Origin: a virus | Lineage: Duplodnaviria; Caudoviricetes | DNA length: 53,807 bases | IMG/VR virus record: IMGVR_UViG_3300010354_000118 | Coordinates: 1 to 53,807 of that record | Strand: one strand, 5' to 3' | Shown here: positions 923 to 37,000 of the stretch, piece after piece | Numbering within the stretch: position 1 is the first letter of the stretch | How the letters are laid out: the number at the start of each line of letters is the position of its first letter | Position numbers and translations under genes: made by a program | Notes under the pieces: generated by a model | What the model saw: only the letters and a program-made list of their open reading frames with translations | The model's database searches: none | Told to the model about the DNA's origin: nothing

Positions 923-1777
923 ATGAGTAAATTAAAAGTATCAGAATTGTTTTATAGTGTTCAAGGTGAAGGACGTTATATGGGAGTTCCCAGTGTATTC
1001 CTTCGCGTATTTGGATGTAATTTCACCTGCGACGGATTTGGAAAACCTAGGGGCGAACGTTCAAACGAACGGCATCTTATAGCAGAACGTATTGCCGAAT
1101 TTAAGACCTATAAAGATTTACCATTAGTTCACAGCGGGTGTGATAGTTATGCCAGTTGGGATCCCAAATTCAAAGATTTTAGTCCGGTATTAGAAACAGA
1201 CGCTATTGTAGATGCTATCATGGACATGCTGCCATATAAGCGTTGGATGAGAGAACATCTTGTGATTACAGGTGGTGAACCATTGTTAGGGTGGCAACGT
1301 AGCTATTCTGATCTATTAGATCATTCAAAGATGCAGGATCTAAAAGAAATCACATTTGAGACCAATGGTACTCAAAAACTTTTACCAGATTTCAAACGCA
1401 GATTGCTTGCATGGATTGATCAGCGTGAAGCTAACAGTAATGTTCTTACATTCTCAGTCAGTGCCAAACTTCCTTCAAGTGGAGAAAAATGGGAAGAAGC
1501 TATCAAACCTGAAATAGTATGTGAATATGAAGAAATTGGTTGGACTTATCTTAAATTTGTAGTAGCCACAGAACAAGACGTTCAAGATGCTCTGCGTGCC
1601 ACTATGGAATATAGGGATGCAGGATTTGAGGGTGAAGTATATCTTATGCCCATAGGTGGAGTAGAGAGTGTTTATAGCCTAAATAACAAGAATGTAGCCT
1701 TGGCCTGTATGAAACATGGATTGAGGTACAGTGATAGACTTCAGGTGCCGCTTTTCAAGAATGCATGGTCGACATAA
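923..1777 (+). CDS. queE: 7-carboxy-7-deazaguanine synthase (radical SAM)
   Basis: ELFYSVQGEGRYMGVPSVFLRVFGCNFTC...CDS, VITGGEPLL, FETNGT, SVSAK, LKFVV, VYLMP and RLQV motifs typical of QueE. Confidence 0.9.
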   Translation: MSKLKVSELFYSVQGEGRYMGVPSVFLRVFGCNFTCDGFGKPRGERSNERHLIAERIAEFKTYKDLPLVHSGCDSYASWDPKFKDFSPVLETDAIVDAIMDMLPYKRWMREHLVITGGEPLLGWQRSYSDLLDHSKMQDLKEITFETNGTQKLLPDFKRRLLAWIDQREANSNVLTFSVSAKLPSSGEKWEEAIKPEIVCEYEEIGWTYLKFVVATEQDVQDALRATMEYRDAGFEGEVYLMPIGGVESVYSLNNKNVALACMKHGLRYSDRLQVPLFKNAWST

Positions 1778-4776: not shown

Positions 4777-4805
4777 TAAATATATGTGCTTCGGAGCACA
4801 TATAT
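4777..4805 (+). promoter_or_regulatory. TAAATA late-promoter core overlapping an 11-bp hairpin that covers the RBS and start codon
   Basis: TAAATA 4777-4782; atatatgtgct (4780-4790) / tcgg / agcacatatat (4795-4805) is a perfect stem; GGAG 4793-4796; ATG 4804. Confidence 0.75.
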
Positions 4806-5100
4806 GTCAAGACCAAAACCAAATATACTTTTAGAAATAACAAATAAGAAAACTTTTAAGACTGAACAGGTCTTAGAAGCCGAAGCTATCTGGGCTGTTT
4901 TCTATAAGGATAAGCCTGTCAATCTTAAAATCACCAGTATCGTAGCCCAAAAAATTGGTCCTAAATACAAAAAAGTAAGTTTCTCAAATAGTGGACATGC
5001 CTTCAATCTTGCAGATAAATTAAACAAAGCCTACAACTGCTCTGACTTCACAGTAGTTAAACTTACCAAAGGTGAACTTGTGATAGAAAGATATGAATAA
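4804..5100 (+). CDS. hypothetical protein
   Basis: Start reassigned to ATG 4804 (MSRPKP), 7 nt after GGAG. Confidence 0.75.
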   Translation: MSRPKPNILLEITNKKTFKTEQVLEAEAIWAVFYKDKPVNLKITSIVAQKIGPKYKKVSFSNSGHAFNLADKLNKAYNCSDFTVVKLTKGELVIERYE

Positions 5101-5473
5101 AAAAGAATTTACTGGTATAATTTTAGAAAAGATAGGTAAACCTAATACAGCAGAAACCATCAAAAGATATCAACATGTTTTTTGGGTAGACATCAGAAAC
5201 AATCAAAACTATAGACTTACACTTAATGGCTTTGAAGCCTGTAATCAAGCCCAAATCCGTCATTACAAATTCGAATTAAGCAAGATTAACATCCTTCCAA
5301 GTCTTACTGCCAAAAATCTTTTGGACATGCAGAAATATGTTCCTTATCCATTTTATCTCAATGAACATTCTGTGTTCCTTTTTGACCAAAAATCCACTGT
5401 GGAACTAATGCTCTATGAAGGCAATTTCTTCAAATTCATAGAATTCAAGAAGCATAGCACAAAAACCGCTTGA
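5093..5473 (+). CDS. hypothetical protein
   Basis: 126-aa ORF overlapping the upstream stop. Confidence 0.7.
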   Translation: MNKKEFTGIILEKIGKPNTAETIKRYQHVFWVDIRNNQNYRLTLNGFEACNQAQIRHYKFELSKINILPSLTAKNLLDMQKYVPYPFYLNEHSVFLFDQKSTVELMLYEGNFFKFIEFKKHSTKTA

Positions 5474-5498
5474 CGAGGTCTAGCTTTTTTTGTATACT
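5470..5498 (+). promoter_or_regulatory. sigma70-type promoter
   Basis: TTGACG (5470-5475), 17-nt spacer, TATACT (5493-5498); AGAGGA RBS before ATG 5531. Confidence 0.75.
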
Positions 5499-5530
5499 AT
5501 ATAGACACTAACAAACTAATAGAGGATTAA

Positions 5531-6613
5531 ATGGCTGAGAAAATTTCCAGTATTCGTACCGTAGGTCCAAATGATGCAAAGTCAGCAATTCGTTTTGCCA
5601 TGAAGGTACGTCGTCCAATTTTTATGTGGGGACCTCCAGGTATTGGTAAATCGGACATCATCAAACAACTAGGTTATGAACAGGAACGAGAAGTAATTGA
5701 TGTTCGTTTGAGTCTTTGGGAACCCACTGATATCAAAGGTATTCCATACTACAATAGTCAAGCTAACACTATGACTTGGGCTCCTCCGTCGGAACTGCCT
5801 TCAGATCCAGACAGCAAGGCTATTCTGTTTCTTGATGAGTTGAACTCTGCGGCTCCTGCTACACAGGCAGCGGCTTACCAACTTATTCTCAACCGCCGTG
5901 TTGGCACCTATCGTTTGCCAGATGGTGTAGACATTGTAGCAGCAGGTAACCGTGAAGCAGACAAGGGTGTAACTTTTAGAATGCCTGCTCCATTGGCAAA
6001 CCGTTTCATTCACGTTGAATTAGAAGTCAGCTTTGACGACTGGCATGAGTGGGCTGTAAACAATCGTCAGCATGAACAGGTTGTAGGCTTTTTAGGCTTC
6101 AGTAAGCAGGATCTATATGATTTTGATCCAAAAGGTGCGAGTCGCTCATTTGCAACACCGCGTTCTTGGTCGTTTGTCAGCGATCTTTTGCATGACTCAG
6201 CTCTCAGTGAAAACACTCTAACCACATTGGTAGCAGGTGCCGTCGGTGAAGGCCTTGCAGTCAAATTTATGGCACACCGTAAGGTTGCCAAGCAGATGCC
6301 TAAGCCTCTTGATATTTTGGAAGGTAAGGTTACCAAAACTGAGATTAAAGAAGTTTCTGCCATGTACTCTTTGACTATCAGTATGTGTTATGAGCTTCAG
6401 GAACTTAACAAGAAGAAGGTCAAGGATTGGGACAAAATGGCAGACTGCTTCTTTGGATTTATGATGGACAATTTTCCAACTGAGCTTGTGGTTATGGGTG
6501 CCAAAGTAGCATTGGTAAATTATCAACTTCCTTTTGATACTACCAAACTTAAAAACTTTGATCGCTTCCATGAAAAATATGGAAAATACATCATACAGGC
6601 AATGGAAGGTTAA
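5531..6613 (+). CDS. MoxR-like AAA+ ATPase
   Basis: Walker A GPPGIGKS, Walker B ILFLDELN, AAGNR, and ALANRF-like arginine finger (PLANRF). Confidence 0.9.
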   Translation: MAEKISSIRTVGPNDAKSAIRFAMKVRRPIFMWGPPGIGKSDIIKQLGYEQEREVIDVRLSLWEPTDIKGIPYYNSQANTMTWAPPSELPSDPDSKAILFLDELNSAAPATQAAAYQLILNRRVGTYRLPDGVDIVAAGNREADKGVTFRMPAPLANRFIHVELEVSFDDWHEWAVNNRQHEQVVGFLGFSKQDLYDFDPKGASRSFATPRSWSFVSDLLHDSALSENTLTTLVAGAVGEGLAVKFMAHRKVAKQMPKPLDILEGKVTKTEIKEVSAMYSLTISMCYELQELNKKKVKDWDKMADCFFGFMMDNFPTELVVMGAKVALVNYQLPFDTTKLKNFDRFHEKYGKYIIQAMEG

Positions 6614-6636
6614 AAAGGGCCCGCAAGGGCCTTTTT
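6612..6636 (+). terminator. rho-independent terminator
   Basis: aaaaa-gggccc-GCAA-gggcct-tttt: GC stem, GNRA loop and T tract immediately after the stop. Confidence 0.85.
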
Positions 6637-6639
6637 CAT

Positions 6640-6668
6640 TTGACCTAGATGAAGAAAGACTATATAAT
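6640..6668 (+). promoter_or_regulatory. sigma70-type promoter
   Basis: TTGACC (6640-6645), 17-nt spacer, TATAAT (6663-6668). Confidence 0.8.
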
Positions 6669-6689
6669 TGTATATGAAAGGGGAAACAA

Positions 6690-7919
6690 ATGAGTCAAGT
6701 TATGAAATCTGAAAAAACTTCTAAGGTAGTATCTGATAAGGTATATACCAGTGCTGAGAAAAATAAAATCCTAGAGAAACTTACCACTGCTAGAATTGGA
6801 CTGCTTCTGCGTCACCCATTCTTTGGAAACATGGCCACTCGTATGAAATTGATAGATGCCAGTGATTGGTGTCCTACTCTAGCCACTGACGGAAGAAACT
6901 TTTACTACAGCAATGCCTTTGTAGATAAACTAAGCACTAAGGAAGCCGAATTTGGTTTCGCGCATGAAGTCATGCACAATATCTTTGATCATATGGGACG
7001 CCGTGAGGGGCGTCATCCCATGCTGTCTAATATTGCCGCAGACTATGCAGCCAACCAAATTCTTATAGATGAGAAAATTGGTGCCAAACCCAGTTTTATT
7101 AAAATTTTCCAGGATGACAAATATCGAGATTGGAGCTACGAAGCTATCTACAATGATATCTATGAAAAGGCAGAAAAAATTGACATCAGTAAATTAGGAG
7201 AATTATTAGACGACCACCTCGATCAAGACGATGAAGATGGAGGAACCGGTAAAAAGCCTAAACTTACTCCAGAAGAGCGTAAGGCCATTAGAGACGAAAT
7301 CAAAGAAGCCATGATTGCCTCGGCACAGAGTTGTAGTGCCGGAAAAATGCCAAAAGGAATCAGTCGTCTTATCAAAGATCTTACTGAACCAAAAATGGAT
7401 TGGAGAGAGATTCTAAGAATGAATATTCTTAGCATTATTAAATCTAACTTTTCTTTTAACAAGCCCAATCGCAAAAGTCAGCACACCGGCGCAGTTCTAC
7501 CTGGTTTGTTAAATGATGAAACCATCGACATCTGTGTTGGCATTGACATGAGCGGTTCAATCAGTGATGCTCAAGGCAAAGACTTTCTAAGTGAAATCAA
7601 AGGCATTATTGATCAATACACAGATTACAAAATCACAGTTTGGTCTTTTGATACTCAAGTCTATAATCAACAAGAATTTACACCAGATAATGGCGAGGAC
7701 ATTGCCGAATACGAGCTCAAAGGAGGAGGTGGTACAGACTTCATGGCCAATTGGGAGTACATGAAAGATCATGATATTCAACCTAAAAAGTTCATCATGT
7801 TCACTGACGGTTATCCCTGTGGTGATTGGGGAGATGAGGACTACTGTGACACATTATTTGTTATTCACGGTAACGAAACCATAGTTGCACCATTTGGTCA
7901 AACCACTTATTACAAATAA
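6690..7919 (+). CDS. metallopeptidase-like (HExxH) plus vWA domain protein (DUF2201-type MoxR partner)
   Basis: TLATDG, AHEVMH; C-terminal MIDAS DMSGS, GGGGTDF, FTDGY. Confidence 0.85.
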   Translation: MSQVMKSEKTSKVVSDKVYTSAEKNKILEKLTTARIGLLLRHPFFGNMATRMKLIDASDWCPTLATDGRNFYYSNAFVDKLSTKEAEFGFAHEVMHNIFDHMGRREGRHPMLSNIAADYAANQILIDEKIGAKPSFIKIFQDDKYRDWSYEAIYNDIYEKAEKIDISKLGELLDDHLDQDDEDGGTGKKPKLTPEERKAIRDEIKEAMIASAQSCSAGKMPKGISRLIKDLTEPKMDWREILRMNILSIIKSNFSFNKPNRKSQHTGAVLPGLLNDETIDICVGIDMSGSISDAQGKDFLSEIKGIIDQYTDYKITVWSFDTQVYNQQEFTPDNGEDIAEYELKGGGGTDFMANWEYMKDHDIQPKKFIMFTDGYPCGDWGDEDYCDTLFVIHGNETIVAPFGQTTYYK

Positions 7920-8244: not shown

Positions 8245-8456
8245 TGGAAAATGAACAAACAATACCAGTTGATACCCAGGCAGCGGCACCAGAATTAACT
8301 GTAACTGATCTACAAAATATTCGATCAATTTTAGATGCTGCCTGTCGCAGAGGAACTTTTGCCGCAGGTGAAATGGCATCAGTGGGCGCGGTATATAACA
8401 AGCTGGATACATTTATCAATGCTGTAGCTCCCAAAAAAGATGAAGCAGCACAATAA
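8244..8456 (+). CDS. hypothetical protein
   Basis: 70-aa ORF with AAGGA RBS. Confidence 0.7.
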   Translation: MENEQTIPVDTQAAAPELTVTDLQNIRSILDAACRRGTFAAGEMASVGAVYNKLDTFINAVAPKKDEAAQ

Positions 8457-8465
8457 GGACCAAAC

Positions 8466-9053
8466 ATGAAACATGTTGGAAGAATGAAAAACAATGGTGC
8501 GAAGATAGCAGTGGCCTATAGAACCATTCCGGGAGATCCTCATAGTTGTCTTGTAATTGCAACTAACGGTTTACCTGATGCATTTCATGATGCTTTCATG
8601 AGTGTATTAGAAAGCGATAGTGGTCAACAAGCAGACGAATTAGCTGACATACTGACCGCAAGGCGTTTTCCAGACGGCAGTAATATGCTGGGCTATCTAC
8701 ACACAAATAACCTCTTAACCAAGGTTAAAACGTCAGCAGTAAATATTTTACCCAATAACAATACCAGTATCTCGCTTGACGAACTCAATCTACTTATTGC
8801 CCAACAAAAGGGTATAGCGTTAGAGGAGCTCGCAGTCAAAAGTGAATCAGGACAAAAAGTACCTGAGAAAAATGCTGAGCCTGTAAAAATTGAAGAAGCT
8901 CCTGCTGCTCCTAAACAAGAGTTTGAGTTAACACCAACTGAATTAAGATCTAGAGCAGATGCTCTATTCAAACAGGCTCAACAACTACGCAAAAAAGCCG
9001 ACGAACTGGATCCTCCTAAAAAGAAAGTCAAAGCTGAAAAGGTAGAACAATGA
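8466..9053 (+). CDS. hypothetical protein
   Basis: 195-aa ORF with AAGGA RBS and a charged C-terminal helix. Confidence 0.8.
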   Translation: MKHVGRMKNNGAKIAVAYRTIPGDPHSCLVIATNGLPDAFHDAFMSVLESDSGQQADELADILTARRFPDGSNMLGYLHTNNLLTKVKTSAVNILPNNNTSISLDELNLLIAQQKGIALEELAVKSESGQKVPEKNAEPVKIEEAPAAPKQEFELTPTELRSRADALFKQAQQLRKKADELDPPKKKVKAEKVEQ

Positions 9054-9229
9054 CAAATCTAAAAGTAGGTGATATAGTTGAGAAAGTTTCAGGCTATAAA
9101 TGGCCCGGAGTAGTAGTATCAGTTTTCCATACACTGGCAGGTGAAAAGAGAGTAGTGGTTGAATGCACAGTAGCTGAAGTAAAAGGCGCTCTACATATCT
9201 ATAACGAGTCACAGCTTAAAATAACATGA
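9050..9229 (+). CDS. DfrB/R67 (type II dihydrofolate reductase)-like SH3-fold protein, 59 aa, not in ORF track
   Basis: MTNLKVGDIVEKVSGYKWPGVVVSVFHTLAGEKRVVVECTVAEVKGALHIYNESQLKIT*; ATGA overlaps at both ends; aligns by eye with R67 GDRVRKKSGAAWQG...AVE...GSVQIYP. Confidence 0.7.
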   Translation: MTNLKVGDIVEKVSGYKWPGVVVSVFHTLAGEKRVVVECTVAEVKGALHIYNESQLKIT

Positions 9230-10098
9230 ATGAAGATCTATATCTAGATTCTCTTAGAGATATTCTTGAAACAGGAGAATCTAGACCTGACAGAACTGGC
9301 ACAGGTACCATATCGAAATTTGGTCTACAATTAAGATTTAATTTGCAAAAAGGATTTCCTGCTGTTACCACTAAAAAACTAGCATGGCGTAGTGTAGTCA
9401 GCGAACTATTATGGTTCATAGAAGGCAGCGGTAATGAACATAGGTTACAAGAAATACTCTACGGTAATGCAGGTTCACATAAAACTATATGGACAGATAA
9501 CCTGAATGCAGACTATTGGAAGCCTAAAAAGAAACATGCAGGGGACCTAGGTAGAATCTATGGAGTCCAATGGCGTACTTGGCGTGCGCCCGTGTTAGGT
9601 GTTAACAAAATGGGGTTGAAGCATATTGATCAACTCACAGAATTAGTAAATGGTCTAAAACAAGATCCCATGTCTCGAAGGCATATCATAACTGCATGGA
9701 ATCCAGGGGAACTACATTTAATGGCTCTACCACCCTGTCATATGATGGCTCAGTTTTATGTTAATAATCTAAATCAGTTGAGCTGTCAAATGTACCAAAG
9801 GTCCGCCGATATGTTTTTGGGAGTGCCATTTAACATTGCATCGTATGCTCTATTAACTCATATGCTAGCACAGGTATGCGACCTAACTGTAAAAGAGTTA
9901 ATAATTGTATTTGGAGATGCGCATATCTATAGGGATCATGTTCAACAGGTACGTGAACAACTTACAAGAACACCATTATCTAGTCCCAGTATTAGATTGA
10001 ATCCAGCTATTAAAAATATTTTAGAGTTTAGCATGGACGACATTACATTAGAAAACTACGAATCGCTGGGCCCCATCAAGGCCAGTATGAGTATCTAG
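9226..10098 (+). CDS. thyA: thymidylate synthase
   Basis: DRTGTGT, ELLWF, YGVQWR, SRRHI, MALPPCH, YQRSADMFLGVPFNIASY, GDAHIY. Confidence 0.97.
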   Translation: MNEDLYLDSLRDILETGESRPDRTGTGTISKFGLQLRFNLQKGFPAVTTKKLAWRSVVSELLWFIEGSGNEHRLQEILYGNAGSHKTIWTDNLNADYWKPKKKHAGDLGRIYGVQWRTWRAPVLGVNKMGLKHIDQLTELVNGLKQDPMSRRHIITAWNPGELHLMALPPCHMMAQFYVNNLNQLSCQMYQRSADMFLGVPFNIASYALLTHMLAQVCDLTVKELIIVFGDAHIYRDHVQQVREQLTRTPLSSPSIRLNPAIKNILEFSMDDITLENYESLGPIKASMSI

Positions 10099-11300
10099 GC
10101 AACCATTACTTCTATAACACCCTGCCCGTCCGAGTGATTGGATTGTAGAGCTCTGGCAAATACAGCATTAGGACTATCTGACTTTTCAAATGATCTAGCA
10201 TGCCCTGGTACACTACTGGTTACTAATAAATCCCCCTTGTGAACACGCCCAACTACTTGGCAAGGTAATCTTCCTTTCAGTGCTAGATAGGGATGTGTTA
10301 GATCTGTACCAGCATCTTGATTCATTTTAAAAGCAGGTTTTTCGCTCACTATACCTGCTACAGCTACATCAGCAGATGTTGAACATATAGTAACATCATA
10401 TTTTCCGCCTATAACTAATACAGTGCCTGGAGCATATTCTGCGTCAGCGTGATAACGTTCTGCAATATCAGCATAGGTAGCATGTAAACTAGAACCAGCA
10501 GTTAATGTCCATGCCCCTTCGATGGTACCTGGCAGTACAGGACTACCTGTACTAATTCTAGTTATATTACCAAGTTCTGTTATATTAATGAGAGAGGAAA
10601 TACTACTTTCCAAAACATAATTACTAGCAGGCAAACCATTTAATCGTTTAGAATCTGCTGCTGTACCCCAAAACCAATAATCTTGGCTAGTAGAAGTACC
10701 AGTAATATTATCAGCAGTTTTAAGAGTCACACCTTTTTTAATTTTAGTAAATTCACTAGATAATGGATGACTAGCAGCTACAGTAAATTCATAATTACTT
10801 AAAACTGCCACAGTTTGATCAGCTATCATTAACTTAATAATATTATAGGTAATATCACTGTCAGATAGAATCTGAGTTGTAGCAAGTGTGCCTGACCCGC
10901 TTTCATTTCCACTGCCAGCGTTTGGTCCTATTAATAATAGTTTACCAGCACTTTTAATATATAAAAGTTGAGAAAACTTATCAAACCAAAAATCACCTTC
11001 GGCTAGATCCGTTGGCTCATCTGAACTTGTAGAACTTTGCAGTACATTATTCCATCTTACACCATCATATACTTTAAGTCTTTTACTAGCTGAATCATAC
11101 CATAACTGGCCAGTAATAGGTTTTCCCGGGGGTGAAATATTTGAAAAATTTTCTAGAAGTCTTACAAGATTTTCGTTTACAACTTGTCCATATCCAGCAT
11201 AATTCTTACCAACCAGTTTTAGATCAGTGGTAAGATTAAGAGTTCCATCAGCTATCGATGTAAGCGTTACTCCGTTTGTTCTAAAAAGTGTATATGGCAT
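10095..11300 (-). CDS. tail fibre-like protein with probable C-terminal intramolecular-chaperone (peptidase G2-like) domain
   Basis: Shared N-terminal module (LVGKN..GYG...NEN...LLENF...P..GQLWYD); C-terminal YADIAERY...GTVL...GIVSEKP...LKGRLPC...KGDLLVTS. Confidence 0.7.
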   Translation of the reverse strand: MPYTLFRTNGVTLTSIADGTLNLTTDLKLVGKNYAGYGQVVNENLVRLLENFSNISPPGKPITGQLWYDSASKRLKVYDGVRWNNVLQSSTSSDEPTDLAEGDFWFDKFSQLLYIKSAGKLLLIGPNAGSGNESGSGTLATTQILSDSDITYNIIKLMIADQTVAVLSNYEFTVAASHPLSSEFTKIKKGVTLKTADNITGTSTSQDYWFWGTAADSKRLNGLPASNYVLESSISSLINITELGNITRISTGSPVLPGTIEGAWTLTAGSSLHATYADIAERYHADAEYAPGTVLVIGGKYDVTICSTSADVAVAGIVSEKPAFKMNQDAGTDLTHPYLALKGRLPCQVVGRVHKGDLLVTSSVPGHARSFEKSDSPNAVFARALQSNHSDGQGVIEVMVA

Positions 11301-11311
11301 AGTTACTCCGA

Positions 11312-22007: not shown

Positions 22008-25000
22008 TTAGAATCCCTTTATTCTTATACCGCTATCATATGTCAGGTACGTGCCATCATCTAATCTTATATACATATCGCCACCATAATAATTAATATC
22101 CGGAATTCCAGCGGTTCTATCATGTATAAATGTACTAACTGAGCTTTCAGGTTTTTTCGCTACCGAAACGCTTAATAGACTCGTATCACTTACGTATCTT
22201 CTAACCAGCGATAATGGATATCCGGTTTGTATATTTACTGTAGAGGTATTTAAAATTATTTTAAATGTACTGGTTCCTTGCTTTATAATACTAAAATCAT
22301 TTTCTAATTCACTGAGTCCAAGATCAGAATTGTTATCAAAGCTATAGTTTTTATCATGAACTAATCTCTTATTACCAGACTTAAGAGGTTTTACCAAAGG
22401 AATTCCTCTATAAAAAACCTGTACTTGATCATGATAAGCTATTGAATCATCAAAACGAATATTATTAATTACGTAGGTATTAGTTGTAGACGTTGTGGAA
22501 ATGACGACTCTTTGGAAATTGTCAGTTAGGGGGATGTTTTGTTTAACACTTCCATCCATGACCCATGTGCCTATGGCATAAAATTCCCTAGGTCCTGTTC
22601 CTAACGTACCCCTTTTAATTCTACGTAATGTGTTGCCCTGTTTCTCTAAATATTCTATGCGTTCGCCTGCAATGAATATGATACCAGGTCTATTTTGTTC
22701 AGGATAAGGATTGGCCATTACTAATCCGTCGCTGACTTCTATTTCTGTATCATCATATCTTAGTTCTTTGGTAAGATACACAGTGTCTTGCTGACTGATT
22801 CTCTTGAAATGATTTCTATTGAAAATATCTTGAAATAATTTGAATCCGATAGTCTTAGTTTCACTATAACCAAATGCCAATATATTAACTAAACCGTCGG
22901 TTTCTTTCATTAGATCTTCGTCAATCTTTATGGTCTTTTTATCAGAAAGAACATAAAAATCAGATCCGCCAAGTAGAGCCTTACCATTCAAACTTACCCA
23001 AACAAAATTTTCGTCGTAGACTACTCTAGAAATTCTATAATATCCGCTGCCATTTATTGGAAATACTTCATTGATAGCGAAACTATTATCTTGGACTGGC
23101 CAACTTAAAACTCTTAATTTTCCAGCCGTATTATATTTTTTTATGATATAAATTTGATTTCCTATTATTCTAAATTCAGCAGGATATTGATAGATAGTTA
23201 TACCAAGTGTATCTCCAGGTACCAAATAACCATTTGGCAATCTAACAGTCATAGCGTCTGTATCTAAGAAAAATGCAGTACCAGGAACTTCGACTGAATT
23301 TTTAAAAAGTTCAATTTCACTATATCCTAATGATTCAATAGGATAACTAAATCTTCCTTGTAATGAAAATTCAACTTGGTTATTTTCAGTAATTTTAATG
23401 TAAGTCGTATTTGGTGGTGTAAGCCTCCTACCATCTAATTCTACAATAACCTGCGATGACTGAGAATAATTGTAAGCTGGAGGATTTTTTAATGTATAAC
23501 CGCTAGCATAAATTGTATTAGCTAGATTATTATCGATTCCTCTGTAATCTATAAATTGTTCGTAAAATAGTGTAGAATGTAAAGATTCATTGGCAAACAT
23601 ACTGGTAACTATTGTTCCTCCGGCACTATTGAGATTTGATATTTGTACTGCTGCTCTCGAAGCGTTGAATCCTGGTGCTTGAACTATTTGATATGAATAA
23701 TTTGTAGCACTGTTTACATAGATATCAACCGCAGAACTTTTTACTTCGTTATAATCTGCGTCAGTTAAAAATAGGTACTCATCTAATCCAGGTGGTATAT
23801 TGCCATAATTTACAGATAATAATCTACTGCCTCCCGGAACTGCGGCGATAATTTCTAATGATCCAGATTTTACAAAATCTGAAACTCTATTAGGACTGAA
23901 GCTACCTTCACCAGCATAAACCCAATTTCCCCCATCAGCTAGACTATAGAATACATGCGAACTATTATCACGAATAGCTGTGTAGCCTATTTGAGTTCCA
24001 GATCCATTTAGTGAGCCAGATCTTGCTGTAGAAACACCTGTAATAAATCCTCGATCGCCGTTAAAATTTATACCCTTCCATACGTTTCCGTAGACCATTT
24101 CTATGTATTGGTATACTCCATTAGTATATAGAGTTACTTGATATTGATAGGACGGAAAAGGACTTTGCAATCTCTCATTATAATGTCCGCCTTCATGCCT
24201 AATTTTAAAATATTGCCACTCTCCTATAGTTCCAGAATCTGTATACAAACCTGGATTTCTTCCGCTGTTCAACGGCTGACCGTTAGAACCTAATGATAAC
24301 CATAAATCACAGTACATGACATAAATTGCAGGAGAAGTTAAAAACCCAAATTGCAAAGGAGTCCAATTAGTAAAACCGTAGCCAAATGTAAGATATCCGT
24401 TAGATCCCACATAAACTTGGTCAAAAGTTTTTCCAAACATGTTCCATTTTATAGGAAGTGGATAAGGGCCGAAAAAGGCATCATCCCCTATGTCGGAATT
24501 TTCTATAAAATTATCATCCGAATAATTCATAGATTTTATAGCCTTGCTAAAATAGGGCCCAACTGTATATCTTGTTGGATCGTCTTTAAGTTCGATAGAT
24601 CTAGAATTGTAATCAATATCATAGACTTTTCTATCTAATTGTTGATTATTAAATGTAACAATAATAGGATATCCTGGATATACTCCCTTGCTAAATGAAT
24701 ATGTACCTGTACTCACATCCTCGACTGTGTGAACTCTTCTATAGAAAGCAGGACCTGCTGTTATAGATCTAGAATAAACATTGATACCTACAGTATCATA
24801 GGCCTCCCCTTTGACCATTTCTTCAGGTGCGTGTGATCGCCAAGGTGATAGGAATTGATCACCATCTAATCTAATATCTAGAGGATCAACTCCTCGAGCA
24901 GTTAGAAATGCGCCAGACGTAGATGTGGTCATGTCTCCGCCACTGATTTGAACATCTAAATTGTCTACATCAAACGCTACTTTACCCCATTCGTTTGATT

Positions 25001-28000
25001 CAAATAAATCGTTATCAAAATTATAATTGGGATTAAGAGGTTCTGTTATCAAAGTGGTACCAGGATATTCTGCACCTTTCATATTTTGAGAAACGACATT
25101 TCCTGACATTCCAGACCCAGATTCATATAGATCTAGCATTCTTTCAACAGCAGAATATAGTTTAACATTCTTTGTATAACTGACTTCCAGTGTTTCTCCG
25201 TTATTAGGAATTCTATCTATAACAATGTCTGTCATTAAGGCATGATAACTATTCTTTAGTTTCCTGTATTCCCTAACAAAAAACTTATTTTTCAAAAGAT
25301 TAATCCCGTTTAGTTTTACTTCTATTTGATTTTTATCAGGTGTAGCGGCCCATCGAGTGGTTTGATAATCTTTTGTTCCGTCAAAGGTAAAAGTTTCAGT
25401 TACTCTATCCGAGGGCACTTCTCTTGATGTAGTAATTCTGTCAAATTTTATGTTAATAAGATTTGATCTTACTTTACGATTATTCATTATGCAATAGGCT
25501 GTGGCATTTTCACCAGTTTTTTCGAAACTATTAATAACAATAGTAGGTGTTTCCGTATAGCCATCACCTTGATCTAAAACTTCTATTTTATAAACTTGAC
25601 CTCTTCTTATATAGGCTTTGGCCCTGGCAGGACGAATTAATGGTTGAGATTGATTAGAAAGAATTATTACTTCTGGCGGATTTAAATATCCGCTGCCTGT
25701 GTCACGAATTTTAATTTCTTCTACAAATAATTTATAATTTTTAGACCATGATCTATGAGGTTCATTGTTGATCCTCTCATCATTTAATGACAATGGAACA
25801 AAGGTTTTTTGCTGTTCACTATAGACAAGTGGATAATCAAAATCGGTTATCACTCCATTAAATGGTTCAAGATTATTATAGGACAAAGCGTAATTTCTTA
25901 TTTTGCTGTGAAATGGTTTTATTTCTTTCACATAATCTTCATACCATTCGGAATTTGAAAATTTATACGAACCTGGTTGTGTAAGACCGTTAATTTCTGC
26001 TTTGACTGAGATAAAAGATGTTTTAAAAGCCCAATCAAGTGTTTTCTGCTCGCTATGAGCGTATCTTACCGCGGTCAAAAACATGGCTACCCAGTTCGAT
26101 TTAAGTATGCCTACAAAAATATTATCTCTTATAGCTGTTAGAATATTTGTTAATTCTATATTAGGAGTTTGATCGAAAAGAGTTACATCAAATGGCGTAA
26201 CTTGGTCAAAACCAAGGACACTTAATCTATTGTCCCATAAGCTATCTTTTAATTTTATAGTAGATAATTCTCCAAAAACAATATCATAATCTTTTGTAAA
26301 ATTACCTTGGATTCCGTCGGTTTTTCTTAAAATTAAATATCTAGATTCATAATTATTAACTTTGACGTAACCAGAGGGTTTGATATCCAACGTCTGAAGC
26401 TGATAGATATTATCTATCACTGCATCATAAGATTGATAAGATTTATAATCTTTATTTTTATAATCGACAAAATCCCAATACCTTGTAGTATCAAAACTCT
26501 GAGTTTTTATCTTTATCCATGATGAATTAATATATGAATATATAGCCCATCTTCCATTAGAAGTTGAATCGGACCTTATCAGGACTGAAAAAGGTCGAAT
26601 GACCAAATTTACCGTTTGATAATCATTTCCTGGACGAATGATTACTATATCAATGATTCGTCCTAAGTGATCGACAATGCTTTCTAGTTCTAAACCATTT
26701 AGATCGTTCTCAATATATATTCTAGGCCCTAGCCATTTAATAGGATTGCCGTTGATGTCTACTTCTTTCACTACTAATCTGCCATAACCTAGGCCAGGTT
26801 CTAATATATTAACTTTTGTAATTCTACCATTTTCTATTTCAGCTGAGACTGCTGCAGACTTGATTGTTTTTATATCAATACGATCTTTGTCAATTATGTC
26901 CTCAACCGCCAAATCGTAGCTTGACTCTGCAACGTCAGGTTCTTCTTCTCGTAAAAACAATCTGCTGAGATCATAATAATCTCTAATAAGATTTTGCTCG
27001 AAAATAGAATTTACATAATCAATGATATTTCTCAAAGCATAAAATCTATTTTTAAACATTGACTGTTTTGGTCTAAAATCTATCCCATACCGCTGACGAG
27101 CAGATAAATTGATGTCTGGTATAGGATTACCAAGTTTATCCAATCCAACAATACTATCTATAAACTTCCTCTCTAATAGAGGAGGTATACCATTTTTAGA
27201 ATTTTCATTTAATAAAAACCACTCAGTATGATTTTTATTTGTGTTGTTTATTGAATCATTAAGTACATTTAACACTATATCATTTGATTTTAAGTACGAC
27301 CTTACATTTACTAATGACATAGAATTAGGAGACAAGGCCTGTAGATAAGGAAGTCCATAAAATAACGGATCTTGAATTATAGAAGTTATTTCGCCCGCTG
27401 AAATTTTTCTACCCTGTCTATTTGGTACAAGACTTCTTCCTGACACCCAAAAATAATAACTGGTTTTAAAAGTATCTGAGTATATATCATAGATTTTTTC
27501 TATCGAAAAGTCAGTCGTTGATTTAGCTATGCCATCTATACCTTGTATTAGGCCAGCTTCCGATCCTGTGAGTTCATTCCATTGGGTGGGATTAATTGAA
27601 CTTTCTACCCATTCATAGATATCAATCGAACAACCGGGAAATAGTTTACCCCAATAGGCATTTTTAAAATCATCATCTCCTTGATCATAATAAATGTATT
27701 TTAAATTACTTAGATCCCACCATAATTCTCCAACTTTTTCTTTACCCCAAGATTGTTTTTGATCTAGATTATTTGTACCTTGATTATATACTGCCGGATC
27801 AAACTGTGTTTTATAACGTATTTCTTGATCTGCAATAGAAGGAATTTTTCCTTTTAGCGGATCAAATATTGTCAAATAATCTACAACTTCTTCTTTCTTT
27901 ATATCAATTAATTTCGCAGATCGAATAGAATCAGGATCTACATTTACATATTGATCCTGATACCTTAGTCTTTTCCAACTTAAATTATTTGTATCAATTC

Positions 28001-31000
28001 TGTCCCAAACATAGACGCATCCATCTCTACTTTTATTTTTTATAGAATTGATAGTATCTGGTAATTTTAGATACCTGTTAACTGCTCCATTTATATCATA
28101 TAGATCTGCTACTGATCCTGTAGTGTACTGTATTTGACCCTTAGAAGTAGCTATATCATAGATAATGGTTTTAACACCAGACTGACTAAGAGTAGGATTT
28201 TGTTCAAGAATAAGAGCTACAACACCTGCTACCTGCGCAGCAGCCACATCCGATCCGCTGTTTTTGGTAATATAATGAGTAGATGACCTTAGATCTAAAA
28301 CAGCATTACTTGATGTTCCTACCCAAGCACCCATTATATTAGTACCAGGGGCGAAAAGATCAATCCTAGGTCCTGAATTACTTGATGTGCTTAATGAATC
28401 TATTCCTGGGCCAGCTGATGAATCTGAAATATTACCTACTATGATTGTAGATTGTATGAGCCTATGACCTAATGGTCTGTTATAATATATAGGATTATTA
28501 TTGTTTAGTCCACTGGCAGTAATATAGTTATAGTAATCTTGATCTTCAAAAGTTTTTACTATTTTCAAAGAACTGTCGCCCGCACCGCTTATGGCAATCA
28601 TTCCTGCATTTATACATTCTTGAAGGTCATTAGCTAAATCTGGCAAATACCTACTTATTAGAATTTTATTTTCATATGGACCAGATTGTTTTAGGTGTAT
28701 GCCTTTAGTTGCCAATGTGCTTGTTGAAATCGTTGAGGTAGTGATTCCCCTAAAATTGATAGATGTTATACCACTATATTCTACAGTTAGAAATGAATCT
28801 GCTGCAATTAAAATAATAACAGGCCTATAATTATAGTTTAGTCTTCTTTCCTTGTACCATTCTAATATATATTTGTAGATAAATCTATCGTTTATTACAG
28901 GATAAGCATATGATGGACTAATATTATATATATCAGCACCTCGTGCCCAACCTTGAGTATTACCTGCTACAATAGAAGCTAGATGTGTAGAATGTCTGCT
29001 ATCAAAATTAGAATCGTTTAAATTTGACAACAGTGCCGCAGAATAAGTACTACCTGCATTTATGTCACCGGGAATTTTGTAAGAGAACCAATTTACATAC
29101 TTTACGCGAGATCCGCCAGATCCGTTTGGATATACAGCAAATTCAGGATGGCTAGGATCTATATATCCTCCTATGATTAATATATCAACCCCTTTTCCGT
29201 TATTGACAAGATCCAATGACCCTGACTTAGACATCGTCGAGGACCCAGCTCCCCACAAGGAATCAAGATTCGCCCCGTCAAATATCCTTAAAAGACCCCA
29301 ATTCTTAACTGTAGAAGTTATTGATGTGCCTTTAGAAAAATTATCAGTTTGTTTATATCCTTTATATTTAGAATCATCTGTTAACTTATGAATGGTATCA
29401 GGAGCTCCAACATAGACTGTGTTAGTATCAACAGCTAGTCCAAATCCATAATCATCATCGCCTGGTAAACTAATATCGTTGAGTTCTTCTGCAAAAAGAT
29501 AAAATTCATCTAAACGATTGTAAACATAAACCGACCCAGAATCTTTTTTGAGTCCACCAAATTTCGTATACTTGTTATCAAAAAATGTTGTATTTTTATC
29601 AAAAGTCATACTATAAAAAGTACTTGTACCCTGTGCTCCTATCGCTATGACTGTTCCATCTTTATTACTTTCAACTGACGCCCCAAATTTTAATTCTTTA
29701 AATTGTGTGGGATTTTCTAGAACTTGATGAAACTTAAAACTATTTTCTGACCATTTATAGACTAAAACTTTACCAAGTGTGCCTTGAAGATTAACTGAAT
29801 TAGGAGCTGTGACGTATAGGTAATTACCAACATCATCCATATCAATGTCATCAGCATATAGAGATTCTGTCTTTATAATTCCTAAATTTTGAGGACTGTC
29901 CCATGCTAGTATTTGAACTAGATTATAAGACTTATTATTCTTGAAAATTTCTCTCAGCCAAGTATATAGTTGTTGTTGAGCATCGGGTATATTAATTGCA
30001 TGGCTATAGACCCCGGGAATTTCCAAACCTGCAGAATCTAAAACTGTAACAACTTGGTCAGTAGGTAATAGATCAGTGAATTCTTGAATGTTAGATAAGG
30101 GAACTATATTATCAAAGACACTGTGTAAAAAGTAAAATTTAACTCTATTGGTTTCAATAGAAGTTTTCCAAGAGGCATATTTGTATACAGGGCTTAACAC
30201 TTGAGCATTAGCACCATTATTAGTATATGGATTTAATACGTTAAACACTACCTCATTGGGAATACCATTAGTTGAAGTTCCGGATATACTGCCTATTAAA
30301 TTAGCAGGTAATTTTAAATATCTGTTTGGAGATCCTAGAAGATCATAAGGATCCATGATACCTCCAGACGATGTAGATATTTGATTGATACCGGCGGCAG
30401 CGATAAGAGCAGCCTTGGCAGTGGTAGCGTCTAAGGCAGGATTTATTGAAGCCATTAAGGCCAAAACGCCAGCTACCTGAGGAGCAGCCATACTGGTTCC
30501 GCTGGCCTTGGCCAAATAATATGTAGTAGAGGTACTTCTTGCATCTATGGCAGGTGGTAGTCCTGTATAGCCAAATGAGCTGGTATATGGTTGATCATCT
30601 AGCCAAGCTGAAGTTATATAGGCTCCAGGAGCGAAGATGTCTATTCTATCGCCTCGATTTGAAAAGTTTGCGATTCCGTCAACGCCTACTATGTTGGAAT
30701 TAGCTCTTATAGCGCCAACTAGAATTACACCTGGTACAGATCCAGGAGTTCCTCCTCTCATATAGTAAATAGGATTTCCAGAATTATACCCAGTGGCCGT
30801 TATCGTATTATTGTAATCGGGATCAGCAGCATTGGCAGTTACTTTTAGACCATAGTTCCCAGCTGAAGCAGTTATGATAATTCCAGCTGCTAGGCAGGCA
30901 GAGACATCGGCGGCCACGGTCGTGTCGTAATTTGGTACTTGAATACGATTACTAGCATCAACCCTAAGTCCATATAATGCCAAAGTAGAAGTGGTAAATG

Positions 31001-34000
31001 GTCCAGTATAACTAGTACCTCTAAAATTTATTGCTATAATATCTGTTATTAGCGGACTATGACTCATCAACCAAGAACAATTAACTATTGTAGGATTATT
31101 TGCGTAAGGAGTTGCAGATGCTCTTTTCTCGTCGTGCCATGCTTTGATATATTTGAATACGAGGGTCGTAGGAAAGTTGTCTACATCCATGTCAAAGATT
31201 CTGGCCTTTCTAGCCCAACCTTGTGTATTTCCAGCGATAATACCTGCAACATGCGCACTGTGCTTCATTCTCAAATCGATAGGAGATGTCACAGGGGTAT
31301 AGGTAGTTGCTGTGGTCGGATCTCCTACTGTGGTTTTAAGCGAAAACCAATTATAATATTCTACTCTGGTTCCGCCGGTTCCATCAGGATTTAGTGCGAA
31401 TTCAGGATGGTTAGGATCAGTCCAACCTACATCACAGATTACAACGTCGACATTAGATGCTGAAGTAGACAGGTAAAAACTACCACCTAGATCAGTAACA
31501 TTTGTATCCGCTCCCCAATTTGCCACAGGATTTTGACCGTTATAAACACGCCAAAGTCCCCAATTAACGTCTGTAGGTTTATTTGCTTCAGCCTTGCTAA
31601 AACTATTAGAGCTCACAGAAACCAAGGACGATATACTATTTGTTATAGTGGTTACTAGACCCATGGGACTAGCTATTGGTATTATGGCGAGAGGATGTAC
31701 ATTGAATAATCTTCCATATTCGCAAGCTGCCATTACAGCTAAATGACCCCCAACACTAGTTCCCGTTACCACTAGATCATATTGTTTATAGTATTCATTT
31801 ATAATCTTCCAATAACCTATTCCGTTTTTAGTAAATTGATCTCCTGCTCCTTGAACATAGATAAACTTTAAAATTGTCAAAATATCGTTGACATTTTGCG
31901 CTTGTGAGCCAAAATCTGTTGTTTCAAAGTTATTCGCTTCTCCTGTACTACTGGCTATATACACAGAATTGAAGGCATTTTTTACCAATCTATAATTACA
32001 ATTAATAACGATATATCCTTGCTGTACAAGATCTATTGCCAAATATTCGTCGCTTACAATATTTTTTACAGGATCATTTGAAGAAAAAGTAGGTAATGTT
32101 GAAATATCTATTGCGAATGGTAATGCCTGGTTAGGGGTATTAGCTGATGTTTCTAATACCAAATGCTGTGTTGATGCAACTATAGGTCCAGATGGGCCAC
32201 CGGTTCTAATTTTTATATCTACTAATGTATCTCCTATAAACTGTGCATCCTGAGGGAATCTAATTGTAAAACTTTTTCGAAATTGATCTTCATTAATATC
32301 CCATTCTGTTACAGCAGTATTGCCAATCAAACTGGTTCTTATAAAACGTTCTTCGCAGGTTATCCAAAATTCGCCTTCTACTTTATCAGAACTAACAATG
32401 ATCGATATAGTAATTCCTTCGTTAGCAGAGTAACTAGACAGGCTCACAATAGACCAATTGGCAGTTTCCTGTGAAACATTAACATTTTCCGTTATTGATT
32501 TTGCTTGATCAATTAAACTTATATTTGGTTGAATAGTTAAATCAATTTCTGTTTTAGAATTAGACGCTGATGCAGACAAATACCTAGAAATGCTTTTAGT
32601 TCCCCCTGACCATCCCCCTCCATGCACCATCATTACCATGCCTTTGACCATTCCGGAAGTTGGTATCAATAAATCTACACTTTGAAGAAAGTCGTTTCCA
32701 TAGGGGATATCATATATAACTCTAAAATTTTCAAATGACTCAGACTCTGGTACTGCAACTTTATCGAATATATATACAGATCCGTTTGTACCATCACCTA
32801 AGGTAGTGACAGCTATTCTACTTCCTTCTAGATTTCCTGCTATCTTTGTCCCAAATCTTTGCCCTATTGCGCTAGAGACTGGCAAAAATTGCTGTTTAGG
32901 AGAATTTACGTTAGCTCGATAAGTTTTTTTAATGGCAGCATCAAATGGCGTTATACCTCCATCAAAAACAGTTGTATCTCTATCGAAGATTGTTCTTTTT
33001 GAATCAAAACTTTCATAAAATAAATCATAGACAAAGACAGCGCCAGAAGCAGTATTATATCCAGGAGCTCCTACTAAAATCGTTTTATTCAAAGGTGTAG
33101 ACGATATGTAAACACTATAACCAAACTCAAGATTATTTTGAGGGTATTGAGAAATAAGTGTTGTTAATCTTTTATCTTGATTAGATGTAGATTGGAAAAT
33201 TGATGAAACAGTCACTAGTCCCTGATTAACATAATTAGAAACTGTAGACCCGGGAACAGCCAGAAATGTAGCATTATTCAATATTTTAGTAGGAATTTTA
33301 GAAGCATAAGGACTTCCTACTACAACTAAGTCATCAGAAGAATCAAAAGACAAAGAATGACCAAATCCGGCAGAAGGATAATTTATATTGTCAAAATATT
33401 GTTGATTTTGATAATTTAGATAAAAAGAAGAAATTATTTTTTTATTAGAACTATCTATAATAAAAACTTTACCATATTGATTAATTGAATCATTTTTCAA
33501 ATTTGCAGCGGTCAATATAATGATTTTATTTTCTTCATTAGAAATTATTTTAGTTCCAAATCTCTGCAGATTAGATCTTTCAGGTCTAATCTTATCTATG
33601 GCGTAATTTTTTATTTTTTGATATACTTCCCATTTACCCTTTTCGTTGTTATCTATCCATAATTTTTGATCAATAGCTATATCTGCAATACCATTGACAT
33701 TAATTAAACTATCTATATCTACTAATCTAGCAGTTTCTAGTCTGCATAATACCGCTTGGTCGACTCTTTCTGGTAAATCGGCTTGAGATTCTATAACGAA
33801 ACTGTTTAGAGACGGAATAGAAATTATTTCAAATACTTTATCAAAATCATCATTCAAATATTGAATTAAAACTCTGTCTCCTTGATTAAGGTAATGATAA
33901 TTTTTTGTTGTAACCTTAAATGATTGCCCAGATTGATAATTTTCTACGTTTATCACAGGATTTTTCAAACGCACTGTTCTATAAATCATCCAATCATTAT

Positions 34001-37000
34001 TTTGATCAAAAGCTACCCATATACTTTGGCCTGCAGACAATTTGATTTTTGATTCTTTTAATTCGTTCCAATTTTTAATAATGATATCGACATCATCTGG
34101 TCTAGGATACCCTGCATCCATTAAAACATGGCCATTATTTTCAAAATTTACTGACAAAGGTTTGAATATATTTTCTATATCAAATAAATTAGGCTTAATG
34201 GTTATTTTTTCATTAGTAACCTGGTACCTAACAGTTTCTAAAATATCTTGTTCTTTTTTAAACTGAACTAGTTGCCTATTATCAATAAATTCTTTTTCGT
34301 TTAATAAAAATTCTAATTCAATTAGAGATGAATAAGAGCCGAGATTGCCTAATCTTAATGCCCACTCTTCAGACACCGAAATTTTTGTATTTGAATTTTC
34401 AGAACTGGCTTTAGATATATTTTCAAGTGCTAATCTTGTACCTTTTTCTCTAATATATCCTTGATAGAATTTGTATTGTGTAATTGGATTAATTAAAATA
34501 TTGGTTAGATAGGGTCTAGGACTATAGCCAATAAGATGTTGAGCTAACTTTTGTTGCCCAGAATCAAAATTATCAATATCTAAACTATAGAAATCCTCGA
34601 ATTGATTAATTTTATAATCAAAATTTGGTAACAAATCTGCTATTGGTTTATCCCCTAGTAGATCCCAATCAGCTTGTTCAAAATCCTTAGTGCCTATAAT
34701 ATTACGTTTTAAACTATAATATTTGTTATTATATCTTACTAAATCTCCTGCTAGATAATCACTGTATGGTTGCCAATCTTGTATATAAGCATCATCGTAA
34801 ATAAATCCGGGTGTAAAATAATCGCCATTCCAGTCTATGGTTTTAAATCCTACAAGTCGTATACGTGTTTGTCTATAACCTTTGACACGATCATAGATAA
34901 CATCATTGAATCTACTTAAATTATTAAAAATTAAAATATGTTCTTTTTGAACAAGATTTAATCTAACAAAATATATAGCGTTTTCATTATTAATTGTATG
35001 AATTATAAAATTAATACCATCTCTTTCTAAACTAAAAGAATCTTTGGTCAAAGGTTTCCCAGATTCATCAAGAATATTATACTCATAAAATGAATTAAAA
35101 ATATTATCAACTACACCAGATTCACTAACTAATGTAAATTTATTTGCAAAAGGACTAAGTGTAAGTACACTATCTAATGCCCAATTTTGAGTAGACCAAA
35201 ATAAAAACTCCTTGATACTGAATGTCCAATTAATTATTTCTGCTAGATCGGTGTTATAGTCATCAAATACCACACCTATACTGCTTAGAAAATTATCATA
35301 TCCTAAAATAAAATCTACTACTTCCTGAACGTTAGAATAAATTTTTCCATAAGGAACTCTTGTTATATTATTTTCAAATTGAATCGCTAGGTAGACTTCT
35401 GCACCTCCAAACTCAGGTAGGTCTGTTAAAAGATTATAATTTCTACTGTCAAATAAATCCCCACTGGTATGATTTGTGTTTACTCTATAATACCTATTTT
35501 CATACTTGACCACAGCGCCTGTGCTATAGAATATTCTGCTTGCCCAGATTTCATATTCTTCTAATCTACCGCCAACTCTCAGTACTTTCTCACCTGTAGT
35601 ATGTATTACTTGTCTAATTTCAAAGTAGCTGGTTTTATTATCATAACCTCTAATTTGATAACCGTTGGCAACTTTTTGTACAATAACTCCACTCATACTA
35701 ACTGTTTTAACAGCATTACTAGAGTTTAAAAATATTTCATAGTCTTCAGAAGGTAATAAAATACCAGAGGACTGGCTATCCGGATCTAGAGAATCTATTA
35801 CAATTTGTAGTTTATCTTTGCTGATAAATCCACCTACCTTGTGTGCTAGTCTGTAATCAACAAAGGTTAAATCTTCATATAAATTGTTAACATAATTTAA
35901 ATTATTGGTCTGATTGGCTTCAACTAATAACACACTGTAACCGGAGGTTAATGTCTTTGTGTTATTTTTGATAAGATAAGGTATATCAAGTTTGTTAAGA
36001 CTAGGAAATAGATTAGAGTCTTTTTTAACTAGTTGATTATTAATTCTAACATATCTACTAGGATCCCATAATGTAGACAGATATTTGGCAGGCTTAGTCA
36101 GAATAGCTAAAATCTGAACAGCATAAGGCCAAGCACTGCTTCTACGCCAGGCAGTTTCAGCAGGTCCATGATCCCCAAACTCCCATGTATCATTTTGAAA
36201 ATTAAGATATTGTATTGGTAGAGGTGACCAATTTATAAGGTTGATTAGGTCACCATTACTATCAACTGGAATATAATTAATTAAACCGTCACGTTTATAT
36301 AAATTATCTTGACCTTTCCTAATTCCTTGACGGATAATACCTTTTTCTAAATCTTCCCATAATATGTTATTATTTTTTGTATAGGGAGCAGGTCCATATT
36401 CTTGTTCCCACCATTCAGGTTGTTCACCAAATCCCAACATTTCCCATGGATTAGTATGTGGCCTATCGGTGTCAAAAAATAACTTGAAAATTCCACGCCA
36501 ATTTCCAGGAAACTTATAACCTCTAGTAGTTACCAGTTCGCTGAAATTAAATGATCTTAGATCTTCATTATCATAGAATGTGTTATTTTCATAATCTATA
36601 TTGTATCCCGATTTCCATTTTACAAAATCAGGATATATGACATTCATAATATCCCAATAATCAGCGCCCCATGTGTTTGATCTTGTCAAACTAGGTAAAA
36701 CACTATTAATATCAAACAGTGAGTGATCGTACGTTGCTTTTATAGAATTATATACTCTTGTCTCATACTCTAAAATTATGTCATCTCTATAATCATTATA
36801 GGCCACAATAATGCTACCATCATGTCCTTGAATTACCTTTACTGGCTCCCCAATATAGGTATTATCAAAATACATTGAGGGCTTGAATTTAGGATATAAT
36901 CCTAGACTAGTTGGGGTAGGAGGAACATAATTTCCTACTATAGAAACATAGCATCTTATGTTAATTTTATCATTCAATTCTATATCAATCTTCAACTCAA

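Follow-up and report, generated by a model that had tools for sequence, protein, structure and literature searches.

The 53,807-nucleotide viral stretch considered here (the whole IMG/VR virus record IMGVR_UViG_3300010354_000118, hereafter the window) carries, immediately upstream of a thymidylate synthase gene, thyA, a short open reading frame (ORF) of 59 codons. Its product is a homolog of the DfrB-type dihydrofolate reductases (DHFRs), i.e., of the R67-like enzymes with an SH3 fold, as supported by family-level sequence evidence, the fold, the predicted tetramer, and a 46%-identical phage homolog that has been assayed.

The gene run upstream of thyA

The dfrB-like ORF (9050..9229, plus strand, 59 amino acids) lies between a 195-amino-acid ORF with no assigned function (8466..9053, plus strand), which matches phrog_15894 with E 1.6e-18 and no Pfam family above the cut-off, and thyA (9226..10098, plus strand, 290 amino acids). 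Its ATG (9050–9052) overlaps the TGA (9051–9053) of the 195-amino-acid ORF, and its own TGA (9227–9229) overlaps the ATG of thyA (9226–9228), both junctions reading ATGA. An earlier note on this DNA had described a 59-codon frame that fills the gap with ATGA overlaps at both ends, and the coordinates and junction sequences confirm it. The three genes form an operon-like run in the order 195-amino-acid ORF, dfrB, thyA. A Shine–Dalgarno (SD)-like AAGGTAG (9039..9045, plus strand), the AAGG of which ends 7 nt before the dfrB-like ATG, may serve as the ribosome-binding site of this ORF, and the 12 nt preceding the thyA ATG are A/T-rich, with no SD-like purine run.

The assignment of thyA is straightforward: the ORF matches Pfam Thymidylat_synt (PF00303) with E 1.9e-103 and 345.7 bits, the cut-off being 24.3, over profile positions 3–265 of 266, and it scores 347.5 bits against NCBIfam NF002497, above the cut-off of 327, as a full-length ThyA. 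The PPCH and RSAD motifs, which we take to be catalytic, are visible in its translation. As for the first gene of the run, eight of the 80 related viral loci that form our sample have it ahead of the dfrB homolog, with 49–53% identity, and these are the same loci in which an unfused thyA is present; the 195-amino-acid ORF may belong to the operon as a third gene.

With only 59 codons, the frame 9050..9229 falls below usual ORF cut-offs and could in principle be an intergenic frame that is open by chance. This reading is refuted by the breadth and the manner of its conservation, and its likelihood is negligible. A search for proteins of near-equal length yielded 475 clusters (90% identity), among which the best 120 listed are 73–100% identical to the query. 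At E ≤ 0.001, an exhaustive profile search retrieved 1263 sequences representing clusters of 50% identity, and 354 of these reach E ≤ 1e-10. In 11 pairwise codon comparisons of the dfrB-like ORF with viral loci, at nucleotide identity of 67–72%, synonymous differences (23–28) exceed non-synonymous ones (9–14) by approximately 2–3:1. A fold predicted with confidence and the SD-like site 7 nt upstream of the ATG also speak against a chance frame. The ORF is a real and widespread gene.

Sequence, fold and assembly of the 59-residue protein

The sole Pfam match of the 59-residue protein is DHFR_2 (PF06442; E 0.043, 14.1 bits, profile positions 24–70 of 78), and its sole NCBIfam match is trim_DfrB (NF000331; E 0.011). 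The R67 signal grows as family information is added. For the single sequence, the top match in the PDB is the R67 Q67H chain 2p4t with E 0.25; for a profile of 38 relatives, four R67 sequences come on top with E 0.0023–0.023; and for a profile of 86 representatives, R67 Q67H (2p4t) is matched with E 6.1e-6 and the wild type (1vie) with E 2e-4, with no non-R67 match in the PDB under E 0.8 (the next one having E 0.84). Conversely, 33 of the 86 family representatives match DHFR_2 at E ≤ 0.01, the best with 1.1e-6. Homology to the R67 DHFR is thus detectable for the family profile.

The AlphaFold2 model (38-row alignment; predicted local distance difference test, pLDDT, 92.9) contains five strands forming an SH3-like barrel that superposes on R67. 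Foldseek ranks 1–7 in the PDB are all R67 DHFR, with a template modelling score (TM) of 0.80, a root-mean-square deviation (rmsd) of 2.2–2.6, and 27–29% identity. When four copies were modelled together, the assembly score was 0.87 (median of three runs), versus 0.01 for the best control, with contact agreement of at least 97% and partner pLDDT of at least 88. In the predicted tetramer each copy contacts two others via distinct surfaces: one interface includes residues 15–19, with W18, and 41–47, and the other includes strand residues 21–30, 34–40, and 46–50. Two interface types are what an R67-type D2 tetramer would require, and by prediction the protein forms a DfrB1-like homotetramer.

Residue equivalences were taken from the HMMER alignment to the R67 Q67H chain 2p4t, the R67 number being the chain position plus 16, an offset that reproduces the numbering of K32, W38, and V66–Y69 as quoted in PMC9835603. 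According to this alignment, G7-D8 correspond to G27-D28 of R67, K12 to K32, S14-G15 to S34-G35, W18 to W38, G20 to G40, V37-E38 to V57-E58, and G46, A47, L48, H49, I50, Y51 to G64, S65, V66, Q67, I68, Y69, respectively. R67 (DfrB1; PDB entries 1vie, 2rh2, 2rk1, and the Q67H variant 2p4t), the type II, plasmid-borne, trimethoprim-resistant DHFR, shares with the phage protein the barrel, the equivalents of K32, W38, G64, I68, and Y69, and, by prediction, the homotetrameric state. It differs in that its pore motif is VQIY rather than LHIY, and in possessing H62 and W45, the latter position being occupied by V25 in the phage protein, as well as a disordered N-terminal tail, which the phage protein lacks (59 amino acids versus 78 DHFR_2 profile positions); moreover, R67 belongs to an integron or plasmid resistance cassette, whereas the homolog described here is part of a phage operon. 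The histidine that the phage protein naturally has at the Q67 position is the residue engineered in the Q67H variant, its best sequence match in the PDB. In R67, the Q67H substitution tightens the binding of both ligands and is accompanied by substrate inhibition.

The segment L48-H49-I50-Y51 is the pore motif of the B4 strand and conforms to the nonpolar/polar/nonpolar/aromatic form, and K12 is the positively charged residue that stands at the equivalent of position 32. These positions are nearly invariant: among the viral loci, K12 is conserved in 80 out of 80, W18 in 79 out of 80, G46-A47-L48-H49 in 79 out of 79, and I50 and Y51 in 76 out of 78 each. Such constancy of the pore motif and K12, including loci without thyA, fits a conserved ligand-binding tunnel.

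These results largely agree with the earlier note, which had matched the protein to the R67 core by eye and had seen no H62 equivalent. The alignment reproduces the matches, and V44 stands at the H62 position. As to the checks that it had proposed, the profile search returns DHFR_2 as the sole match, under the cut-off for the single protein and clear at the family level, and structure prediction yields the homotetramer.

Assayed relatives and linkage to thyA

A recent survey of DfrB homologs (Lemay-St-Denis et al., Mol Biol Evol, September 2025; PMC12486381) provides the experimental background. It reports 386 homologs collected and 148 tested, with the prediction of a DfrB1-like tetramer agreeing with activity in 139 of the 148. 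Among active homologs it describes position 32, occupied by lysine or arginine, as the most conserved one, the tunnel having no invariant residue and the B4 motif being usually nonpolar/polar/nonpolar/aromatic. Activity is predicted, according to the survey, by a positive electrostatic potential of the tunnel. Its clusters III–V are presented as non-catalytic and dimer-forming, and Table 1 lists two active, trimethoprim-resistant, tetrameric members of cluster II, namely, the viral A0A6J5PTB3 (motif LHIF; kcat 1.07 per s, with substrate inhibition by NADPH) and DfrB-TS, a fusion with thymidylate synthase (motif LHIY). The KM values for dihydrofolate in Table 1 lie at tens to hundreds of µM. 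All four viral cluster II homologs are placed by the survey at most 20 kb from thyA, one of them 5 bp away, in genomes that it describes as having no FolA. Two phages, one of Pseudomonas and one of Vibrio, had already been noted to carry DfrB homologs in an earlier paper of the same group (PMC9835603).

A0A6J5PTB3 is rank 2 in BFVD for the 59-residue model (TM 0.89, rmsd 1.6, 46% identity over 59 columns), so that the window protein is closely related, both in structure and in sequence, to an enzyme that has been assayed. With the cluster II homologs, as characterised in the survey, it shares K at the position-32 equivalent, the predicted tetramer, the viral origin, and the adjacent thyA, and its LHIY is identical to the B4 motif reported for DfrB-TS; we infer that it belongs to cluster II. 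It differs from A0A6J5PTB3, which has 174 amino acids, in being a stand-alone domain, and from DfrB-TS in that the reductase and ThyA are encoded in separate frames overlapping by 4 nt rather than fused. An exact UniProt look-up of family members gave one accession only, that of a 180-amino-acid Sinorhizobium protein, and no tie to the proteins of the survey (PMC12486381).

In the 80 related viral loci, thyA was looked for within 5 kb of the dfrB homolog. It was found in nine, and in all nine it lies directly downstream. The two frames overlap in eight of these: by 1 nt in L010, L011, L013, and L048, by 4 nt in L050, and by 8 nt in L012, L031, and L071 (for L048 and L050, the ATG taken as the start precedes the aligned residue by 3 nt). 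In the ninth, L080, they are fused: the DfrB-like domain and ThyA (residues 133–399) form a single frame of 399 amino acids (4782..5981, plus strand) with no stop between them, in a complete phage genome of 82,442 bp with direct terminal repeats. The DfrB-like part of the fusion was recognised by tblastn to the window protein (47% identity, E 5e-11); it has F in place of the W18 equivalent and no Pfam DHFR_2 match at E ≤ 0.1.

Among cultured phages, tblastn revealed the domain in four records of three distinct phages, two of which have an adjacent thyA. In Pelagibacter phage Kolga, the 150-amino-acid gp36 (L081 2713..3165) has a DfrB-like C-terminus and ends 4 nt before a putative thymidylate synthase gene; its N-terminus has a weak match to DUF1599 (“nucleotide modification associated domain 1,” E 4e-4). 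In Rhizobium phage RHEph10, a DfrB-like ORF that is unannotated in GenBank (L082 3001..3156, positions 61486..61641 of the record) is separated by 12 nt from the downstream gene for the putative thymidylate synthase gp077; ribonucleotide reductase, glutaredoxin, and dUTPase belong to the same cluster. In Ruegeria phage Tedan, no thymidylate synthase is annotated within 3 kb of the domain match. Megablast of positions 8000–11500 against GenBank phages gave no match, and the window ThyA is at most ~51% identical to those of cultured phages by tblastn; this lineage has no close cultured relative.

Longer forms of the protein carry the DfrB-like domain at the C-terminus, e.g., P0131 (367 amino acids), P0244 (429 amino acids), P0137, P0144, and P0138, the last one from a Sinorhizobium genome. 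Their N-terminal parts belong to no Pfam family, apart from a weak WYL match in P0244. We considered P0131 and P0244 as candidate ThyA fusions and rejected them, the N-terminal parts having no ThyA match.

ThyA, ThyX, and FolA were also searched for over entire records, namely, the 45 of the 80 that are at least 20 kb long. ThyA is present in eight of them, and ThyX and FolA in none. In a 264-kb record, thyA and the dfrB homolog are ~135 kb apart. The completeness of the relatives G006, G028, and G021, the last being this 264-kb record, is 35–69%. The neighbours sampled in thyA-less loci (10 ORFs in eight loci) include DNA ligase, SNF2 helicase, integrase, glycosyltransferase, DUF2213, and a weak DUF4407 match; no folate genes were found among these 10 ORFs, of which four have no Pfam match.

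Role of the phage protein and comparison with T4

The reading that we favour, with a probability of about 0.8, is that 9050..9229 encodes a DfrB-type DHFR tetramer recycling the dihydrofolate produced by the phage ThyA. The 59-residue SH3-like barrel would assemble as a D2 homotetramer, the central pore of which, lined by LHIY of the B4 strand and flanked by K12, would hold NADPH and dihydrofolate near enough for hydride transfer, and the enzyme would return the dihydrofolate released by ThyA to tetrahydrofolate during phage DNA synthesis. Ribosomes that end dfrB would restart on thyA, giving matched synthesis of the two proteins; such co-translation by termination–reinitiation is probable, since the thyA start overlaps the dfrB stop and no SD precedes thyA. 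The 46% identity to an assayed relative, together with the identical pore motif of the assayed DfrB-TS, suggests catalytic activity of the protein; by analogy with A0A6J5PTB3, it would reduce dihydrofolate in an NADPH-dependent and trimethoprim-insensitive manner, and dihydrofolate recycling would be its physiological role.

Several observations weigh against this reading. The DHFR_2 score of the protein, 14.1 bits, is below the gathering cut-off of 25 bits, and its trim_DfrB score, 15.7 bits, is far under the cut-off of 137; judged by the latter, the clinical DfrB resistance alleles do not include this protein. The Foldseek E-values versus R67 are only ~1e-3, and from rank 8 on they are followed by PWWP, CAP-Gly, Tudor, KOW, and ribosomal SH3-like folds with TM 0.72–0.78. 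The mark for the assembly score, which 20 of 30 solved pairs and one of 23 single chains attained, was calibrated on two copies, not four, and the tetramer may reflect the model's memory, because the structure of the R67 tetramer has been solved. In the HMMER alignment no H62 equivalent was found, the valine at this position following a two-residue insertion. As for the genomic context, thyA is absent from the 5 kb around the dfrB homolog in 71 of the 80 loci, and among the 10 records that are at least 90% complete, one has ThyA and nine have neither ThyA nor ThyX. Since ThyA is present in only eight of the 45 records and ThyX in none, most phage copies of dfrB cannot serve a phage thymidylate synthase. 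Finally, a folA gene elsewhere in the genome of this phage is possible: FolA (DHFR_1) was not found in the window, which is ~15% complete according to CheckV.

The earlier note had suggested that the DfrB-type enzyme replaces folA, and had proposed examining synteny with thyA. The replacement argument rests on the 45 related records searched, none of which has FolA, and it cannot be made for the window's phage itself, because its record is ~15% complete. Synteny likewise holds in part: wherever thyA is near, it is directly downstream, and such loci are a minority.

Two alternatives take these observations as their starting point. The protein could be a generic small SH3/Tudor/KOW-like protein with no DHFR activity, comparable to clusters III–V of the survey. 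Its own sub-cut-off Pfam score would be expected in this case, phages commonly encode SH3-like folds (TM exceeds 0.7 for many of the BFVD and PDB matches), and non-catalytic DfrB homologs do exist, as reported by the survey (PMC12486381). This alternative is very improbable: in the PDB the family profile matches R67 only, a tetramer with two interfaces is predicted, which in the survey is the kind of prediction that agreed with activity for the great majority of homologs (139 of 148), a positive residue stands at the equivalent of position 32, and the B4 motif has the nonpolar/polar/nonpolar/aromatic form. The protein could, on the other hand, have the DfrB fold and a main role other than recycling the dihydrofolate of the phage ThyA, being either a tetramerising SH3 binding or scaffold module among replication and nucleotide-metabolism genes, or a reductase acting on the host folate pool; the adjacency to thyA in this lineage would then be a secondary recruitment. 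The scarcity of thyA within 5 kb and of any thymidylate synthase in nearly complete records favours such a role, as do the neighbours sampled (DNA ligase, SNF2 helicase, integrase, glycosyltransferase), the ~135 kb separating the two genes in the 264-kb record (G021), and the survey, in which a binding module is proposed as the ancestor of the domain and an association with replication and repair genes is noted (PMC12486381). Against it stand the strict arrangement of the pair where thyA is near (directly downstream, the frames overlapping or fused, in nine out of nine loci and in the window), the near-invariance of the pore motif and K12 even in loci that have no thyA, and the catalytic activity of the 46%-identical relative. 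We consider such a role, the main rival, rather unlikely for the window protein, and less remote than the generic SH3 protein.

For the family as a whole, a broader proposal can be put forward tentatively, as a possibility that we find more doubtful than not: the GALHIY-type DfrB would be a widespread phage gene that usually occurs with neither a phage thymidylate synthase nor FolA, its general role would not be the recycling of ThyA-derived dihydrofolate, and the coupling to thyA would be derived in few lineages.

The arrangement in the window can be compared with that of phage T4. In the T4 record, frd occupies 145109..145690 and td ends at 145112, both on the minus strand, giving a 4-nt overlap. 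In both phages, the reductase gene is followed by the thymidylate synthase gene with a 4-nt stop/start overlap, whereas the T4 frd product is a Rossmann-like monomer of the FolA type and the reductase of the window is an unrelated, SH3-like protein, predicted to be a tetramer. Because order and overlap are the same as in frd–td, this lineage appears to hold a non-homologous enzyme in the frd position, as the earlier note had proposed; homology, fold, and the predicted tetramer support that proposal as well. Consecutive enzymes of the folate cycle are also coupled in the bifunctional DHFR-TS of protozoa and plants, as they are in the L080 fusion, with the difference that the former use a FolA-type domain and that the two genes of the window are separate.

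The likeness to T4 extends to other parts of the window, where T4-like genes encode baseplate wedge, hub, and tail-fibre proteins. The window also encodes a 5'–3' exonuclease and a Metallophos and SMC_N pair. Elsewhere in the window, a MoxR-like AAA ATPase (AAA_5/AAA_3) is followed by a single protein that has both a DUF2201 putative metallopeptidase domain and a VWA-like domain (5531..7919, plus strand), and a 284-amino-acid ORF (923..1777, plus strand) has weak radical SAM/4Fe-4S similarity (Fer4_12 with E 1.2e-5, Radical_SAM below the cut-off). One ORF of 5852 amino acids (22008..39566, minus strand), a giant putative structural protein, sits in the tail and baseplate module between a 293-amino-acid tail-fibre-like ORF and a baseplate wedge gene.

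Phage cluster II DfrB enzymes that are encoded beside thyA, active, trimethoprim-insensitive, and found in genomes without FolA are a kind already described in the survey (PMC12486381). What the present analysis adds is the pair of overlapping frames mirroring frd–td in a T4-like phage, the phage-borne in-frame DfrB–ThyA fusion, a RHEph10 copy that had gone unannotated, the extent of the family in viral metagenomes, and the finding that adjacency to thyA, seen in nine of 80 loci in this wider sample, is a minority state in this subgroup.

The earlier note had gone further and seen in this phage a reservoir of the resistance family. This is unsupported: the protein is 27–29% identical to R67 and scores 15.7 bits versus a cut-off of 137 for trim_DfrB, the origin of clinical dfrB has been placed in Burkholderiales (PMC11662351), and this analysis of the window and its relatives showed neither mobilisation nor a connection to clinical dfrB. 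The fold is intrinsically trimethoprim-insensitive, and in this sense it represents a latent resistance function.

The locus provides a natural example of non-homologous replacement within a T4-like frd–td arrangement, and it supports the published view that DfrB has a native metabolic role unrelated to trimethoprim. Genes of ~60 codons such as dfrB are shorter than common ORF cut-offs allow, and one of them is unannotated in RHEph10. Viral metagenomes contain far more members of the family than the 20 viral homologs covered by published analysis, and the scarcity of nearby thyA among phage copies qualifies the published generalisation. If the GALHIY-type proteins do have a general role apart from ThyA, they may keep the host folate cycle running during infection, beyond the reach of host regulation and antifolates, or act as non-catalytic tetramers in replication modules; the coupling to thyA, up to the fusion in L080, would then have arisen in few lineages, including a T4-like one in which the gene took the frd position.

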